Origin: Escherichia phage vB_EcoM-G3F7
Sequence record: MZ234035.1
Strand: one strand, 5' to 3'
DNA length: 64,000 nucleotides
In this document: positions 31,725-36,662 of the stretch, one piece after another
Layout of the letters: each line of letters begins with the position of its first letter
Numbering within the stretch: position 1 is the stretch's first letter
Position numbers and translations under genes: made by a program
The notes under the pieces: generated by a model
Database searches by the model: none
What the model saw: the letters and a program-made list of their open reading frames with translations, nothing else
What the model was told of the DNA's origin: nothing

Positions 31725-33152
31725 GTGGTAGAAATTATTCTTTCTCATCTCATATTTGATCAAGCTTATTTTTCAAAAGTTTGGCCATATATGGATTCAG
31801 AATATTTTGAAAGTGGTCCAGCTAAAAATACATTCAAATTAATTAAATCTCATGTCAATGAGTATCATAGCGTTCCATCTATTAATGCGTTAAATGTTGC
31901 ATTAGAAAATAGTTCATTTACTGAAACAGAATATTCTGGTGTAAAAACACTTATTTCAAAACTAGCTGATTCTCCGGAAGACCACAGCTGGTTAGTAAAA
32001 GAAACAGAAAAATATGTTCAGCAAAGGGCGATGTTTAATGCTACGTCTAAAATAATCGAAATTCAAACTAATGCTGAGCTTCCTCCGGAAAAACGAAATA
32101 AGAAAATGCCAGATGTAGGTGCTATTCCTGACATCATGCGCCAAGCATTATCAATTTCATTTGATAGTTACGTTGGTCATGATTGGATGGATGACTACGA
32201 AGCACGCTGGCTATCTTATATGAATAAAGCTCGTAAAGTTCCATTTAAACTCAGAATTCTAAACAAAATTACGAAAGGCGGAGCTGAAACTGGAACACTG
32301 AACGTTTTAATGGCTGGCGTTAACGTTGGTAAGTCATTAGGTCTGTGTTCATTGGCAGCAGATTATTTGCAGCTCGGACATAATGTTCTTTACATTTCCA
32401 TGGAAATGGCAGAAGAAGTCTGTGCTAAGCGTATTGACGCTAACATGCTTGATGTTTCTCTTGATGACATTGATGATGGGCATATTTCTTACGCTGAGTA
32501 TAAAGGAAAAATGGAAAAATGGCGTGAGAAATCTACTCTCGGCCGTTTAATCGTTAAACAGTATCCTACTGGTGGAGCAGATGCTAATACATTTCGGTCG
32601 CTTTTAAATGAATTAAAGCTCAAGAAGAATTTTGTTCCAACAATCATTATTGTTGACTATCTAGGTATTTGTAAATCTTGCCGCATTAGAGTTTATTCAG
32701 AAAATAGTTACACAACTGTTAAAGCCATCGCAGAAGAATTGCGTGCTCTGGCTGTTGAAACTGAAACTGTTCTTTGGACTGCAGCACAGGTTGGTAAACA
32801 AGCTTGGGACTCTTCCGATGTTAACATGAGTGATATCGCAGAATCTGCTGGTCTTCCAGCGACAGCTGATTTTATGCTTGCGGTCATTGAAACCGAGGAG
32901 TTAGCAGCTGCTGAACAACAACTCATTAAGCAAATCAAATCACGATATGGTGATAAGAATAAATGGAATAAGTTTTTGATGGGTGTTCAAAAAGGAAATC
33001 AGAAATGGGTAGAAATTGAACAAGATTCTACTCCAACTGAAGTGAACGAAGTAGCAGGTTCACAACAGATTCAGGCTGAACAGAATCGCTATCAAAGAAA
33101 CGAATCGACTCGAGCTCAGTTAGATGCTTTGGCGAATGAATTAAAATTTTAG
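31725..33152 (+). CDS. 41: replicative helicase gp41 (DnaB-like)
   Basis: 475 aa; Walker A GVNVGKS; apparent GTG start. Confidence 0.95.
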   Translation: MVEIILSHLIFDQAYFSKVWPYMDSEYFESGPAKNTFKLIKSHVNEYHSVPSINALNVALENSSFTETEYSGVKTLISKLADSPEDHSWLVKETEKYVQQRAMFNATSKIIEIQTNAELPPEKRNKKMPDVGAIPDIMRQALSISFDSYVGHDWMDDYEARWLSYMNKARKVPFKLRILNKITKGGAETGTLNVLMAGVNVGKSLGLCSLAADYLQLGHNVLYISMEMAEEVCAKRIDANMLDVSLDDIDDGHISYAEYKGKMEKWREKSTLGRLIVKQYPTGGADANTFRSLLNELKLKKNFVPTIIIVDYLGICKSCRIRVYSENSYTTVKAIAEELRALAVETETVLWTAAQVGKQAWDSSDVNMSDIAESAGLPATADFMLAVIETEELAAAEQQLIKQIKSRYGDKNKWNKFLMGVQKGNQKWVEIEQDSTPTEVNEVAGSQQIQAEQNRYQRNESTRAQLDALANELKF

Positions 33153-33181
33153 TTTACAAGCTGACAAGACTATGGTATAGT
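33153..33181 (+). promoter_or_regulatory. T4-type early promoter upstream of dmd
   Basis: GTTTAC, 17-nt spacer, TATAGT. Confidence 0.5.
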
Positions 33182-33210
33182 AGTCTTGTTGGTTAAATGA
33201 GGAGATTGTT

Positions 33211-33393
33211 ATGGAATTGGTAAAGGTAGTTTTTATGGGGTGGTTTAAGAATGAAAGCACGTTTACTAAAGAAACCACAATGATGAAAGATGACGTTCAA
33301 TGGGCTACTACTCAGTATGCTGAAGTTAATAAAGCATTAGTTAAAGCTTTCATTGATGACAAGAAAGTATGTGAAGTGGATTGCCGAGGATAA
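33211..33393 (+). CDS. dmd: Dmd-like antitoxin
   Basis: 60 aa, directly downstream of gene 41 and an early promoter; size and position match T4 dmd. Confidence 0.6.
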   Translation: MELVKVVFMGWFKNESTFTKETTMMKDDVQWATTQYAEVNKALVKAFIDDKKVCEVDCRG

Positions 33394-33394
33394 T

Positions 33395-33652
33395 ATGCAT
33401 ATTGTTTTATTTAAACCTACTCCGTATAACGTCAGGAAAAATACACAATTCAAAGCACTTATTGCCGATACGTGGGAATTGGTGTTAGATATTCCAGCAG
33501 AAGAAAGTCCTCCATTTGGTCGAGTGGAATTTATTAAGTTTGCTGTTCGCCCTACGAAGCGGCAGATTCGTCAGTGTAAAAGGTATTTTCGTAAGATCGT
33601 TAAGCTAGAGAAACAGTTTGTAACATGTGATTACGCAAAAGTTTTAAAATAA
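33395..33652 (+). CDS. hypothetical basic protein (61.4 position)
   Basis: 85 aa from ATG 33395; Lys/Arg-rich. Confidence 0.45.
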   Translation: MHIVLFKPTPYNVRKNTQFKALIADTWELVLDIPAEESPPFGRVEFIKFAVRPTKRQIRQCKRYFRKIVKLEKQFVTCDYAKVLK

Positions 33653-33710
33653 CTGTTTACTTTTATTGGAAATTGAGATACTATAAACATAAACTACTGA
33701 GGAGATTATC

Positions 33711-34004
33711 ATGAAAAAATTTATCTTTGCTACAATTTTTGCTTTAGCTTCTTGTGCTGCTCAGCCTGCTATGGCAGGTTATGATAAAGATTTGTGCGAA
33801 TGGTCTATGACTGCGGATCAGACTGAGGTTGAAACTCAAATTGAAGCAGATATTATGAATATCGTTGAGCGTGATCGTCCTGAAATGAAAGCTGAAGTGC
33901 AAAAACAGCTTAAGTCTGGTGGTGTAATGCAGTATAATTACGTTCTGTATTGTGATAAAAACTTTAATAATAAAAATATCATCGCTGAAGTGGTAGGTGA
34001 ATAA
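33711..34004 (+). CDS. sp: Spackle-like periplasmic protein
   Basis: 97 aa with N-terminal signal peptide; size and position match T4 sp. Confidence 0.6.
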   Translation: MKKFIFATIFALASCAAQPAMAGYDKDLCEWSMTADQTEVETQIEADIMNIVERDRPEMKAEVQKQLKSGGVMQYNYVLYCDKNFNNKNIIAEVVGE

Positions 34005-34017
34005 TTAGAGGCTAATA

Positions 34018-34182
34018 TGAAAACGTTTAAAGAATTTATCAAAGAAGATATGGTCGCTGGAGATTCAGGTGGTAGTCCTGAAAATATCTCTACTGGAACA
34101 ACGTCAGGCGCTGTAGTAAATAAAGGTCCTGAACAGATTCCTAAAAAGAAAAAAGAGGAATCTAAAGAAAAAGAAGAGTAAA
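34018..34182 (+). CDS. small hypothetical protein
   Basis: 54-aa Lys/Glu-rich ORF between sp and 61. Confidence 0.35.
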
Positions 34183-34183
34183 A

Positions 34184-35212
34184 ATGTCATCAATACCTTG
34201 GATTGATAATGAGTTTGCATACCGTGCATTAGCTCATTTACCTAAATTCACACAAGTAAATAATAGTTCAACTTTTAAATTACGGTTTAGATGCCCAGTT
34301 TGTGGAGATTCAAAAACCGACCAGAATAAAGCCCGTGGATGGTATTATGGTGATAATAATGAAGGAAATATTCATTGTTATAACTGTAACTATCATGCAC
34401 CAATCGGAATATATTTAAAGGAGTTTGAACCTGATTTATATCGTGAGTATATCTTTGAAATAAGAAAAGAAAAAGGTAAAAGTCGTCCAGTAGAAAAACC
34501 TAAAGAACTTCCTAAACAACCTGAGAAGAAAATAATTAAATCTCTTCCGTCATGTGTTAGATTAGATAAACTGGCGGAAGACCATCCAATTATAAAATAT
34601 GTAAAAGCTCGTTGTATTCCAAAGGATAAATGGAAATATCTTTGGTTTACAACCGAATGGCCTAAATTAGTTAATAGCATAGCACCGGGAACATATAAAA
34701 AGGAAATTTCTGAGCCTCGTCTTGTTATTCCAATTTATAATGCTAATGGAAAAGCTGAGTCTTTTCAAGGACGCGCATTAAAGAAAGATGCTCCTCAAAA
34801 ATATATCACCATCAAAGCTTATCCTGAAGCAACAAAAATTTATGGAGTCGAACGAGTTAAAGATGGTGATGTATATGTTCTAGAAGGACCTATAGATTCA
34901 CTTTTTATTGAAAATGGTATAGCTATTACGGGTGGTCAATTAGACCTAGAAGTTGTTCCATTTAAAGATAGACGAGTGTGGGTTTTAGATAATGAACCTC
35001 GTCACCCTGACACTATTAAACGAATGACTAAATTAGTTGATGCAGGAGAAAGGGTTATGTTTTGGGATAAATCTCCCTGGAAATCAAAAGATGTTAATGA
35101 TATGATTAGAAAGGAAGGTGCAACCACTGAACAAATTATGGAATATATGAAAAATAATATTGCCCAGGGGTTAATGGCTAAAATGCGGCTATCTAAATAT
35201 GCTAAGATTTAA
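34184..35212 (+). CDS. 61: DNA primase gp61
   Basis: 342 aa; N-terminal zinc ribbon CPVCGD...CYNC; Toprim-like region. Confidence 0.9.
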   Translation: MSSIPWIDNEFAYRALAHLPKFTQVNNSSTFKLRFRCPVCGDSKTDQNKARGWYYGDNNEGNIHCYNCNYHAPIGIYLKEFEPDLYREYIFEIRKEKGKSRPVEKPKELPKQPEKKIIKSLPSCVRLDKLAEDHPIIKYVKARCIPKDKWKYLWFTTEWPKLVNSIAPGTYKKEISEPRLVIPIYNANGKAESFQGRALKKDAPQKYITIKAYPEATKIYGVERVKDGDVYVLEGPIDSLFIENGIAITGGQLDLEVVPFKDRRVWVLDNEPRHPDTIKRMTKLVDAGERVMFWDKSPWKSKDVNDMIRKEGATTEQIMEYMKNNIAQGLMAKMRLSKYAKI

Positions 35213-35409
35213 ATTAACCCAACTAAAGCAAATGCTAAATCTACGAATGTATCAAGAGTAACTACTGGAATACTAACGCCATGAGCAATAGCAACTGGCG
35301 ATAAAACAAAATTCCAAAGTAAAATTCCTATCATAGCAGTAATAGTAAAAGCTATACGTTTCTTATTACCTTTTATGGCATTAACAAGTGCCATTAATTT
35401 TTGTACCAT
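35209..35409 (-). CDS. small hydrophobic membrane protein, antisense to flanking genes
   Basis: 66-aa ORF; AAGGAGGA RBS 3 nt before ATG; two hydrophobic helices. Confidence 0.45.
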   Translation of the reverse strand: MVQKLMALVNAIKGNKKRIAFTITAMIGILLWNFVLSPVAIAHGVSIPVVTLDTFVDLAFALVGLI

Positions 35410-35422
35410 ATGTCCTCCTTAT

Positions 35423-35446
35423 TGCTTTATATATTTATTGTATAAT
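35423..35446 (+). promoter_or_regulatory. MotA-box middle promoter upstream of gene 56
   Basis: TTGCTTTA box, 11-nt spacer, TATAAT. Confidence 0.55.
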
Positions 35447-35482
35447 TAATCTACTAACCCATGAATTGAAAGGAAAAATAAC

Positions 35483-35998
35483 ATGCCACATTTCAACGAA
35501 TGTAGTCAACTGATCGAAGGCGCTGATAAAGCTCAAAATGAATATTGGGATATTCTCGGTGATGAAAAAGACCCGCTGCAGGTAATGCTTGATATGCAGA
35601 AATCTTTACAGATTCGTTTAGCAAATGACCGCGAATACTGTTATCATCCAGATAAATTAGAAACTGCCGGTGATGTTGTTTCTTGGATGCGTGAACAAAA
35701 AGACTGTATTGATGATGAATTCCGCGAACTTCTGACTTCTCTTGGTGAAATGTCACGTGGTGAAAAAGATGCATCGGCAGTTTGGAAAAAATGGAAAGCA
35801 CGTTATATTGAAGCGCAAGAAAAACGCATTGATGAAATGTCCCCAGAAGATCAGCTCGAAATTAAATTTGAGCTTGTGGATATATTTCATTTCGTATTAA
35901 ATATGTTTGCTGGCCTTGGAATGAATGCGGAAGAAATCTTTAAACTTTATTATTTGAAAAATAAACATAATTTTGAACGTCAAGATAATGGGTATTAA
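35483..35998 (+). CDS. 56: dCTP pyrophosphatase gp56 (MazG-like)
   Basis: 171 aa; matches T4 gp56 length; MotA-box promoter upstream. Confidence 0.85.
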   Translation: MPHFNECSQLIEGADKAQNEYWDILGDEKDPLQVMLDMQKSLQIRLANDREYCYHPDKLETAGDVVSWMREQKDCIDDEFRELLTSLGEMSRGEKDASAVWKKWKARYIEAQEKRIDEMSPEDQLEIKFELVDIFHFVLNMFAGLGMNAEEIFKLYYLKNKHNFERQDNGY

Positions 35999-36662
35999 AC
36001 AAAAATTTTATAGAACATATATCGTAAAAGTTAGGACGCCGAAAGGCGTCTTTTGGTACGCTGGGAAACATGAATCATTTATTGTAAATCCATATGATGA
36101 TAAATATCCGGGGTCAGGCAAAATACTATGGAACATATATCGTAAGTATGGTTTTAATTATAAAATACGTTGGTCAAAATGCCATGGTTCTAGAGAAAAA
36201 TCATATGAAGTTGAACGCGAGCTAATATCTGCATTAAAACGTAAACACCCAGATACTTGCATTAATATTTCTCCTGGTGGTCAGGGTGGAGAAGGAAGAA
36301 AATGGACTGAGCAACAACGATTAGAACATAAACTTAGATTAAACAATCCTGAAACAAAAACTCGGATGAAGAATTCACAACGTATAGCCCAAAATAGAGC
36401 AGAACGAAAAGCTCGGCAATCTGAAGTAATGAAAAAGTTTTATTCGAATGGCGGAAATAAAAAGATTTCAGAAGGAACTTCAAGGGCGCAAAGAAAAGCG
36501 CCGCATTGGCATGAACCGCTTAAAAGCGAAATACATGAGTTATGGGTTTCTTTAGGTAAACCAGCAACAGGCCCGGTTGTAAAGGCGCTTAAAGGAAAAT
36601 ATGATGTAACAAGTTCAGCTCTTAAGAATTTAATTTACTTATTCAGAAAAGAAGATGTATAA
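35988..36662 (+). CDS. segF: GIY-YIG homing endonuclease SegF
   Basis: 224 aa from ATG 35988; GIY-YIG-like N-terminus; between 56 and soc as in T4. Confidence 0.8.
   Translation: MGIKQKFYRTYIVKVRTPKGVFWYAGKHESFIVNPYDDKYPGSGKILWNIYRKYGFNYKIRWSKCHGSREKSYEVERELISALKRKHPDTCINISPGGQGGEGRKWTEQQRLEHKLRLNNPETKTRMKNSQRIAQNRAERKARQSEVMKKFYSNGGNKKISEGTSRAQRKAPHWHEPLKSEIHELWVSLGKPATGPVVKALKGKYDVTSSALKNLIYLFRKEDV

Follow-up and report, generated by a model that had tools for sequence, protein, structure and literature searches.

A T4-type anti-TA interval without adfA in Escherichia phage vB_EcoM-G3F7 and a gp23-like module in its gp61.1

Results and discussion

Gene content of the interval between genes 41 and 61

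The window, a 64,000-nt stretch of Escherichia phage vB_EcoM-G3F7 (MZ234035.1), is 100% identical to the first 64 kb of Escherichia phage vB_EcoM-G3F10 (MZ234038.1, Tequatrovirus), with the same coordinates. Its interval between the helicase gene 41 and the primase gene 61 holds four small ORFs (Table 1), all of which are annotated CDSs in MZ234038.1. Their products share 96–99% amino acid identity with Dmd, gp61.4, Spackle and gp61.1 of T4. The nucleotide identity between T4 and the block amounts to 97.4% over aligned columns, and the whole block is found with at least 90% identity in 502 phage records. Gene order and promoter sequence are shared with the T4 interval (dmd/61.5, tifA/61.4, sp/61.3, adfA/61.2 and 61.1), which differs from the present one by a few amino acid substitutions and by the possession of adfA (627 nt, 208 aa). 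We are highly confident that the region is the orthologue of the T4 interval between genes 41 and 61, with functions assigned by close orthology. The base composition of the island was no different from that of its flanks, a search of positions 32900–34400 against Rfam gave no match at E values up to 1, and a terminator scan found none.

Table 1 Genes and sequence features of the interval and its flanks (positions in the window)
Feature	Position	Strand	Remarks
Gene 41, replicative helicase (left flank)	31725..33152	+	475/475 aa identical to T4 gp41; annotated in MZ234038.1
Predicted early sigma-70-type promoter of the dmd-tifA bicistron	33153..33181	+	-35 TTTACA (33153-33158), 17-nt spacer, extended TG, -10 TATAGT (33176-33181)
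Perfect 9-bp inverted repeat	33164..33189	.	ACAAGACTA / TAGTCTTGT; 8-nt loop; straddles the -10 hexamer
dmd (61.5)	33211..33393	+	60-aa antitoxin-like inhibitor of the RNase toxins RnlA and LsoA; function by orthology
tifA (61.4)	33395..33652	+	85-aa basic RNA-binding inhibitor of the ToxN endoribonuclease; function by orthology
Second promoter-like site, upstream of sp	33656..33684	+	TTTACT-17-TACTAT; preceded by G, as in the T4 early consensus GTTTAC
sp (61.3)	33711..34004	+	Spackle, periplasmic inhibitor of the gp5 tail lysozyme; function by orthology
sp/61.1 junction, position of adfA (61.2) in T4	34005..34019	+	one copy of the RBS-start cassette TAGAGG(C/T)TAATATG
Gene 61.1	34017..34181	+	54-aa protein; N-terminus MKTFKEFIKE, gp23-like core, Lys/Glu tail
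Gene 61, DNA primase (right flank)	34184..35212	+	339/342 identical to T4 gp61

A preliminary description of the locus, made from the letters alone, had placed the first three ORFs at the positions of Table 1, and annotation and family matches bear these out. The fourth ORF exists as well, but one base upstream of the 34018–34182 then given. The same description had recognized the T4 locus downstream of gene 41, with Dmd acting against RnlA and LsoA and with Spackle in superinfection exclusion. The 96–99% identity to T4 agrees with this, and because of it the ORFs cannot be called dissimilar to the T4 61.x products. Alignments with T4 dmd, 61.4, sp and 61.1 all gave matches; the exception is 61.2 (adfA), which the phage does not possess. 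The proposed role as a counter-defence island is already in the literature, where the T4 region between genes 41 and 61 was named the "anti-TA island" (Srikant, Guegler and Laub 2022, PMC9391042). Of the two ORFs left unassigned, the one of 85 aa encodes the characterized protein TifA, whereas the one of 54 aa corresponds to T4 61.1.

That the small ORFs might be chance open frames or mis-annotations is suggested by their size and by nothing else, and its probability is practically nil. They are near-identical to experimentally characterized T4 proteins, two of which (Dmd and Spackle) have solved structures, and they match curated family models (Dmd 150 bits, DUF7279 73 bits, T4_Spackle 151 bits, phrog_1823 115 bits). 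Moreover, the block is kept in 502 genomes and the 61.1 module is conserved across genera at the protein level.

Promoters and repeats

An early promoter had been proposed at the start of the interval, and position 33153 is the first base of a predicted site identical to that of T4. It was the top promoter-like site of our scan, scoring 10/12, in a scan that overall remained at chance level (8 sites vs 5.6 ± 2.4 in shuffles). Since the scan was not enriched over shuffles, the case for this promoter is made by its base identity to T4 from the -35 to the -10 hexamer and by the early promoter described upstream of dmd in T4 (PMC9391042). Judging from the T4 sequence, it would transcribe dmd and tifA as a translationally coupled pair. 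The inverted repeat across its -10 hexamer could form an RNA hairpin only in read-through transcripts from gene 41.

The site upstream of sp scored 8/12, which is under the scan threshold. Its sequence is kept in T4, HY03 and slur03, an indel of 2 nt following closely downstream, and a promoter downstream of tifA has been stated for T4 (PMC9391042). By identity with T4, we infer a promoter at this position, ahead of sp, 61.1 and 61. Late promoters (TATAAATA) were not found near the locus, the nearest being located at 36658, upstream of soc.

Dmd, TifA and Spackle

Dmd is encoded by the first gene downstream of gene 41, behind the predicted early promoter. It is identical to T4 Dmd in 58 of its 60 residues and carries the changes M17T and I22T. 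The protein matches Pfam family PF17587 over its entire length (positions 1–60 of 60; 149.9 bits, cut-off 27) and the structure PDB 5hy3_B, "Antitoxin Dmd" (E 6e-36). By orthology to the T4 protein, and with these two changes, it would bind and block the host RNase toxins RnlA and LsoA.

The start codon of tifA lies one base past the dmd stop codon (1-nt gap), and translation of the gene is predicted to be coupled to that of dmd. T4 61.4 was renamed TifA in 2022 as an RNA-binding ToxN inhibitor encoded in an operon with dmd (PMC9391042). The product of vB_EcoM-G3F7 shares 83/85 residues with T4 gp61.4 (E82K, I83V), and affiliates to the Pfam family DUF7279 (PF23945; 72.7 bits, cut-off 24.5) and to phrog_2375 (E 2e-38). 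By direct reading, its central basic cluster is present (RPTK55R56QIR59QCKRYFRK) and includes K55, R56 and R59, which PMC10853763 gives as the residues mutated in the published TifA mutant and needed for RNA binding. According to the same source, residue 41 sets the potency of ToxN inhibition; it is Phe in this TifA, the weaker T4-type allele, with Ser or His being the stronger ones. By orthology, TifA would bind ToxN and RNA and thereby trap the toxin in an inactive ribonucleoprotein. With the weaker F41 allele, it is expected to suffice against chromosomal toxIN but to fail when toxIN is over-expressed.

The third ORF had been described as a Spackle-like protein of 97 aa with a signal peptide, a reading that the family match, the comparison with T4 and the start of the mature chain all uphold. 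It differs from T4 Sp by a single change, K53E (96/97 identical), and matches PF25676 (T4_Spackle, 151.1 bits) and PDB 6x6o (E 8e-62). A hydrophobic N-terminus ending in AQPAMA|GYD was read from the sequence as a signal peptide of residues 1–22 (33711–33776), with the mature protein starting at G23. In agreement, residues 1–75 of the crystallized mature chain (7cn6) align to Spackle residues 23–97. A mature protein of 75 aa with a disulfide is described in PMC7677548, and both Cys29 and Cys81 are present here. Direct reading against the same text also located all of the residues in contact with the gp5 lysozyme (S32, M33, T34, A35, Q37 and N76); K53E is not one of the residues named in the passages of PMC7677548 consulted. 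The exported protein would, by orthology, inhibit the gp5 tail lysozyme of superinfecting T-even phages.

Absence of adfA

AdfA, the product of gene 61.2, is the anti-DarT protein of T4. An ORF of the AdfA family (Pfam PF23813) is not present between 34004 and 34017, where sp and 61.1 are separated by a spacer of 12 nt with one copy of the cassette TAGAGGCTAATATG. Neither was adfA detected by tblastn anywhere in the 167,867-bp genome of vB_EcoM-G3F10, the best E values being 2.8 for T4 AdfA and 0.18 for the 118-aa homologue from HY03; the Pfam model recognizes T4 61.2 with an E value of 1e-135. At the junction the alignment has gaps of 627 nt (adfA) against T4 and of 973 columns against slur03. 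In HY03 and slur03 the same cassette flanks both adfA and a 118-aa adfA-like ORF. The gene may have been lost, or never gained, via recombination at this repeated RBS-start cassette.

Phages naturally lacking adfA are common. RB10, Shigella phage KNP5, Escherichia phage ERS-1 and vB_EcoM-CHD94UKE2 have the same contiguous sp-61.1 junction (96–100% identity), and T2 is also without adfA (PMC11825919). Other relatives, in contrast, carry between sp and 61.1 adfA, a 118-aa homologue of the C-terminal half of AdfA (Pfam AdfA, E 2e-8), or both. Among 17 tested Tevenvirinae only 13 possessed adfA, and resistance to DarTG1 depends on gp30.3/AdfN instead (PMC11825919). Gene 30.3 is intact in this genome.

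The gp61.1 family

Protein gp61.1 is identical to its T4 counterpart in 52 of 54 residues (N20S, I26T) and is predicted to be disordered. It affiliates to phrog_1823 (E 2e-33, 115 bits) and, with its C-terminal end, to phrog_2086 (E 2e-16). The family is defined by the module E-[ED]-MVAGDxGG..NI..G.T.GA..NKGP, followed by a Lys-rich tail and encoded upstream of gene 61, and this module is present in vB_EcoM-G3F7.

Long forms of about 150 aa (phrog_2086, "T4 GC1491") occur in Slopekvirus, Angelvirus, Lazarusvirus, Karamvirus-like and Vibrio T4-like phages. They share with gp61.1 the position upstream of the primase gene and the C-terminal module [LIM]-x-E-[ED]-MVAGDSGG..NIASG.TSGA..NKGP..KKKK. 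In contrast to gp61.1, they possess an additional helical N-terminal domain of about 100 aa (AlphaFold, pLDDT 80–90) without recognizable fold. For this domain, Foldseek found no match in the PDB (best E 1.7) and, in BFVD, only uncharacterized phage proteins, some of them far longer (672 and 913 aa). A counterpart encoded as a separate ORF does not exist anywhere in this genome. The long form matched 851 phage records in tblastn, and a further homologue search returned close long forms only.

In Angelvirus, Lazarusvirus and a Vibrio phage, the 61.1-family gene is located directly upstream of the primase gene, whereas in Slopekvirus it lies two genes from it. Aeromonas phage PX29 has no other gene between 41 and 61. 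The ORFs filling this interval in Slopekvirus and Lazarusvirus gave nothing informative with Pfam. Its fixed synteny with the primase gene in distant genera argues for a backbone gene and not for strain-specific cargo: gp61.1 is probably the Tequatrovirus short form of a Straboviridae backbone gene accompanying the primase gene. The preliminary description had counted the 54-aa ORF among the counter-defence genes; as a backbone gene tied to the primase across distant T4-like genera, it probably does not belong there.

Similarity of gp61.1 to the major capsid protein

The conserved module of gp61.1 is homologous to residues ~62–100 of gp23 (hhalign 97.4% probability, E 9e-12), the part that holds the protease cleavage site and the "N-fist". 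Residues 3–39 of gp61.1 align with gp23 58–94 in a colinear, gap-free manner (16/37 identical), and E10 is placed on the Glu before the gp21 cleavage site of gp23. The ungapped score of this pair was 76, compared with 11.9 ± 5.8 in 5000 shuffles. Searched with the gp61.1 profile, the PDB sequences yielded gp23 with an E value of 7e-5, and among all ORFs of this genome gp23 was the sole significant non-self match (E 6e-7). The similarity holds for the 61.1 family in all four genera examined. Unlike gp23, gp61.1 has neither the HK97-fold body nor the 57-residue upstream part of the propeptide, and it ends in a poly-Lys/Glu tail. A plain duplication of the 5' end of gene 23 was considered as well and rejected: in hhalign, the long form compared with gp23 residues 1–110 had no homology in the upstream propeptide, and since the homology stops short of this part, 61.1 is not simply a duplicated gene 23 5' end.

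The first ten residues, MKTFKEFIKE, could be taken for the 10-residue capsid targeting sequence (CTS; PMC9026906) of the T4 internal proteins IPI, IPII and IPIII, which ends in [LI]-x-E. Starts of the type MKT[YF]xEF[IL]xE were found in gp61.1 and in only five other ORFs of the genome, one of which is annotated as "internal (core) protein". In contrast to IPI–III, the similarity of gp61.1 does not extend past the first 10 residues and its gene lies outside the ip loci. Conservation of the N-terminus is lower in Mosigvirus-like homologues, which start with MKSFKEVMNE, and the sequence may derive from the internal segment EIFKELPLFE of the long form and not from a CTS.

There are also hints of lineage-specific co-variation between the 61.1 module and the cognate gp23.

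Possible functions of gp61.1

In the literature we found gp61.1 only in the gene table of one paper, with no function and no report of its presence in virions. Our best guess from the sequence comparisons, though a tentative one, is that gp61.1 might be processed by gp21 and associate with proheads, or might compete for the binders of the gp23 N-terminus. Its module may be a paralogue or a mimic of the maturation-cleavage site and N-fist of gp23. The prohead protease gp21 would cut it after the conserved [LI]-x-E, and the peptide would then have a role in assembling or maturing the head, or contend with the gp23 N-terminus for one of its partners, e.g. the scaffold core, gp21 or Soc. Co-variation of 61.1 with the cognate gp23 would in this case mirror shared binding constraints. 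Against a head factor stand the result of the late promoter scan, which found none near 61.1, and the location of the gene among replication genes. The lack of any report of the protein in virions and the possible origin of its CTS-like start in the long form also count against it.

This location invites a second explanation, which we consider rather unlikely, namely that gp61.1 assists or regulates the gp61 primase and gp41 helicase in DNA replication, or that 61.1 is mainly an upstream ORF coupling ribosomes to gene 61. The position upstream of gene 61 is conserved in four genera, the 61.1 stop codon is followed after only 2 nt by the ATG of gene 61, whose Shine-Dalgarno sequence is weak, and the Lys-rich tail could bind nucleic acid. 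However, such a role leaves unexplained why the module is so strongly and specifically homologous to the cleavage site and N-fist of gp23 in all four genera examined, and an ORF that served coupling alone would not have residues that stay invariant in 30 sequences of 36–50% identity. Because the head-assembly gene 40 shares the same cluster, location alone is weak evidence for a replication role.

A third explanation, a fourth counter-defence gene, is improbable. Here gp61.1 would act as an inhibitor or decoy for a host immunity protein, in one version as a decoy for a sensor of the N-terminal part of the major capsid protein. It is small, predicted disordered and adjoins three or four proven defence-related genes, and other genes of the region have been called "attractive anti-toxin candidates" (PMC9391042). 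It mimics a segment of gp23, and capsid proteins trigger abortive-infection systems such as Gol/Lit. The fixed synteny beside the primase gene in distant genera, however, sets it apart from dmd, tifA, sp and adfA. The distant intervals between genes 41 and 61 are otherwise filled by unrelated ORFs, and PX29 has a 61.1-family gene there with no other. A role as Gol mimic or Lit counter was set aside, as gp61.1 and gp23 cease to be similar roughly at the start of the best-conserved stretch of gp23, the presumed Gol core.

Implications

The locus as such is already known: it re-identifies a textbook interval of T4, and mechanisms have been published for three of its four genes. The counter-defence repertoire predicted for vB_EcoM-G3F7 comprises Dmd, a weak F41 TifA, Spackle and gp30.3/AdfN, without AdfA, and a prediction of this kind is useful when phages are picked for therapy or typing. 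The accessory cargo (dmd, tifA, sp and adfA) is now set apart from the backbone gene 61.1. The resemblance between gp61.1 and gp23, as suggested by the sequence comparisons, is an unexpected side lead. Gene 61.1 is still annotated as "hypothetical" in more than 800 T4-like genomes, and its product shares a 39-residue module with the major capsid protein. If the head-related reading is true, gp61.1 would be an unrecognized head-related factor encoded beside the primase gene, much as gene 40 lies beside the helicase gene.

Organisation and conservation of the dmd-61.1 region

Four small genes, dmd, tifA (61.4), sp (61.3) and 61.1, lie between uvsX, 40 and helicase gene 41 on the left and primase gene 61 on the right. 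The ORF list and the sequence confirmed the 60-, 85- and 97-aa ORFs of a preliminary description, and the GenBank annotation of phage G3F10 (MZ234038.1) has the same set; the 54-aa ORF is also real, one base off from where it had been placed. The products were compared with T4 by global alignments to the reference NC_000866 (Table). In a megablast search against 50,697 phage records, positions 33100-34250 found two full-length matches at 100% identity, one of them MZ234038.1 with coordinates equal to those of the window, and were matched at at least 90% identity in 502 records, nearly all Tequatrovirus.

The preliminary description had read the stretch as a counter-defence island in which the 85-aa and 54-aa products were unassigned. 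The region was termed a possible "anti-TA island" in 2022 (PMC9391042), and this interpretation is essentially the published one: the locus finding is correct yet already known from a deposited genome, characterised genes and the published "island" concept. The 85-aa ORF does have an assignment, namely gp61.4, renamed tifA in the same study. Gene 61.1 probably does not belong to the island's cargo, as described below.

Features of the locus, its flanks and the comparison sequences (L002, L003 and L008-L011, loci of related phages; L005, the part of MZ234038.1 beyond the window)
Feature	Sequence	Position	Size	Residues identical to T4
Gene 41, left flank	window			475/475 (gp41)
dmd promoter, first base	window	33153		
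Inverted repeat	window	33164-33189		
dmd	window	33211-33393	60 aa	58/60 (Dmd)
tifA (61.4)	window	33395-33652	85 aa	83/85 (gp61.4)
Putative second promoter	window	33655-33684		
sp (61.3)	window	33711-34004	97 aa	96/97 (Sp)
Cassette before 61.1	window	34005-34019		
61.1	window	34017-34181	54 aa	52/54 (gp61.1)
Direct repeat in 61.1	window	34075-34092, 34126-34143	18 nt	
Gene 61, right flank	window			339/342 (gp61)
Hydrophobic ORF, minus strand	window	35209-35409	66 aa	
Stretch following gene 61, no dam	window	35213-35482		
Homing-endonuclease-like ORF	window	35973-36662	224-229 aa	
Late promoter motif	window	36658		
soc	window	36696		
Repeated cassette copies	L003	2409-2423, 2765-2781		
Repeated cassette copies	L002	3018-3035, 3375-3393		
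gp30.3 homologue	MZ234038.1	92170-92628 (L005 28170-28628)		
Long-form 61.1 gene	L008	3501-3956		
Long-form 61.1 gene	L009	3501-3989		
Long-form 61.1 gene	L010	2971-3447		
Long-form 61.1 gene	L011	3001-3486		
Other CTS-like ORFs (147-156 kb)	MZ234038.1	147454, 150528, 155276, 156036, 156360		

Beyond gene 61 the order departs from that of T4, in which dam adjoins gene 61, whereas here gene 56 (dCTPase) follows. A tblastn search of the whole genome with T4 Dam residues 1-208 had no match at E up to 1, and the Dam methyltransferase therefore appears absent from the phage. Just downstream of gene 61 lies a hydrophobic ORF that is annotated in G3F10, HY03 and slur03; the T4 stretch between 61 and dam is 93% identical to it at the DNA level yet carries no annotated feature. 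A homing-endonuclease-like ORF is located between gene 56 and soc, and the late promoter motif TATAAATA directly upstream of soc.

Promoters

The top site of a promoter scan, TTTACA-17-TATAGT with an extended TG, precedes dmd. By itself the scan proves nothing, since its total of 8 sites shows no excess over shuffled sequence (5.6 +/- 2.4). From -35 through -10 the site is identical in T4, where dmd and 61.4 form a two-gene locus under an early promoter with a further promoter downstream of tifA (Srikant et al., PMC9391042), and the early promoter proposed in the preliminary description is thus probably active. The element GTTTACT-17-TACTAT behind tifA fits the second promoter of that study; because it scored only 8/12 it is treated as putative. 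Across the -10 hexamer in front of dmd runs a perfect inverted repeat with 9-bp arms (ACAAGACTA/TAGTCTTGT) and an 8-nt loop, identical in T4 over its whole length; a hairpin would be possible only in transcripts reading through from gene 41.

Dmd, TifA and Spackle

Pfam assigned the 60-, 85- and 97-aa ORFs to Dmd (150 bits), DUF7279 (73 bits) and T4_Spackle (151 bits), bearing out the Dmd-like and Spackle-like labels given earlier. Structures have been solved for Dmd (5hy3, 5i8j) and Spackle (6x6o, 7cn6), and the crystallised mature Spackle chain begins at residue 23 of the sp ORF, in agreement with signal-peptide cleavage after AQPAMA.

Dmd directly inhibits the toxins RnlA and LsoA, TifA and ToxN co-precipitate, and T4 escaped toxIN through dmd-tifA amplification (PMC9391042). 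TifA binds both ToxN and RNA and traps ToxN in a ribonucleoprotein, RNA binding being required (PMC10853763). Its potency is tuned by residue 41, S41 or H41 conferring more activity than F41. TifA of the window phage has F41 and the basic cluster K55/R56/R59; its substitutions relative to T4, E82K and I83V, both fall in the C-terminal extension that is absent from the more potent RB69 homologue (PMC9391042). Spackle acts in the periplasm as an inhibitor of the gp5 tail lysozyme (PMC7677548), and the contact residues that this source names are all kept. By orthology, a single transcript would yield Dmd and TifA early in infection, both of which would counter RNase toxins deployed by toxin-antitoxin defences of the host, and Spackle would be exported and block superinfection.

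Absence of adfA and possible exchange of modules

In T4 (NC_000866) sp and 61.1 are separated by gene 61.2, whose 208-aa product is the anti-DarT factor AdfA (Pfam PF23813, E 1e-135). In the window phage sp and 61.1 are only 12 nt apart, and a tblastn search of all 167,867 bp of the G3F10 genome was negative for adfA-like sequence. The sp-61.1 interval of relatives contains adfA, a 118-aa ORF with homology to AdfA's C-terminal half, or the two together. Upstream of each module between sp and 61.1 lies the cassette TAGAGG(T/C)TAATATG, which occurs in repeated copies in relatives, and the modules share the same 3' end, the last 13 residues being common to AdfA and the 118-aa ORF. The repeats are obvious candidate recombination sites and suggest that modules are gained and lost in cassette-like fashion. 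With a junction probe, sp and 61.1 were found uninterrupted in a minority of records, e.g. RB10, KNP5 and ERS-1.

The loss of adfA is not remarkable: T2 is without it, only 13 of 17 tested Tevenvirinae carry it, and DarTG1 resistance instead depends on gp30.3, the NADAR-type anti-DarT1 factor AdfN (PMC11825919). A gp30.3 homologue is intact in G3F10 outside the window (Pfam Phage_30_3, E 7e-70) and could explain DarTG1 resistance in an adfA-less phage. The window phage thus appears to combine a weaker TifA allele and a retained AdfN with the absence of AdfA.

gp61.1 as a backbone gene

The 54-aa ORF, previously called unassigned, is T4 gp61.1 and matches phrog_1823 and no Pfam family; it is nevertheless the only one of the four ORFs without a known function. 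An exhaustive profile search placed 52 representative clusters in its family (E <=0.001). Most are 120-165 aa long with the 61.1-like module at the C-terminus and correspond to phrog_2086. With one such long form as tblastn query, 851 phage records were matched, from Klebsiella, Acinetobacter, Vibrio, Aeromonas and other T4-like phages.

Aeromonas phage PX29 has no gene other than the homologue between 41 and 61. The homologue thus adjoins the primase gene on its upstream side in PX29, as it does in Acinetobacter phage fHyAci03 and Vibrio phage D484, and is two genes away in Klebsiella phage PMBT1. The rest of the 41-61 interval is completely different among these genera. From this synteny and the otherwise unlike intervals, 61.1 is best regarded as a backbone gene, with variable cargo (dmd, tifA, sp and adfA) inserted upstream of it. 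A part for gp61.1 in counter-defence is accordingly improbable. The synteny and the 2-nt gap to gene 61 would also fit a role in replication or translational coupling, which we consider rather unlikely. Within 61.1, the two units of an imperfect direct repeat (78% identity) specify ...SPENIS... and ...GPEQIP...; either chance or an internal duplication may account for their likeness.

Similarity of gp61.1 to the capsid protein gp23

Several methods agreed on a resemblance of gp61.1 to a part of the major capsid protein. [quoted passage not shown] Against all ORFs of the G3F10 genome, gp23 was the only significant non-self match of the profile (E 6e-7). The ungapped alignment has 16/37 identical residues and a BLOSUM62 score of 76, compared with 11.9 +/- 5.8 and a maximum of 45 in shuffles (n=5000). 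Aligned by hhalign with the gp23 N-termini of four genera, the family gave a probability of 97.4% (E 9e-12) over 39 columns equivalent to gp23 62-100, to which the module is homologous, and the similarity did not reach the upstream part of the propeptide.

The gp21 prohead protease removes 65 N-terminal residues of gp23 at L-T-E65/A66 (PMC9546572). The 61.1-like segment begins at this site and runs through the N-arm/N-fist, which is disordered and scaffold-facing before expansion, then externalised to help form the Soc site (PMC9546572). An [LIM]-x-E is kept just before the module in the gp61.1 family, at the position of the cleavage site. The module itself is predicted to be disordered (pLDDT <50), and the N-terminal domain of the long form is a confidently predicted helical domain of no recognisable fold. 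Across the four genera, 13-17 of 28 residues are common to module and gp23. In two of these, represented by PMBT1 and PX29, the module matches its cognate gp23 best and has lineage-specific residues in common with it, which, with just four genomes compared, is no more than a hint of co-variation.

The short T4-type N-terminus MKTFKEFIKE resembles the capsid targeting sequence (CTS) of internal proteins; it aligns equally well with the internal ...EIFKELPLFE segment of the long form. Starts of the type MKT[YF]xEF[IL]xE occur in only six ORFs of MZ234038.1, gp61.1 included. One of the other five is annotated 'internal (core) protein', two of the CTS-like ORFs are preceded, at a distance of about 60 nt, by GTTTAC-type early promoters, and the late motif TATAAATA was not found within 200 nt of these ORFs.

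The preferred, though tentative, reading is that gp61.1 may be head-related, either as a peptide processed by gp21 or by competing with the gp23 N-terminus for one of its partners. Homologues of 61.1 already go by the name "major capsid (domain-containing) protein" in the output of several annotation pipelines, so the resemblance has been picked up automatically; it was not interpreted there. Lying outside the interpretation given in the preliminary description, the relationship between gp61.1 and gp23 is the one element of this locus that could become new biology.
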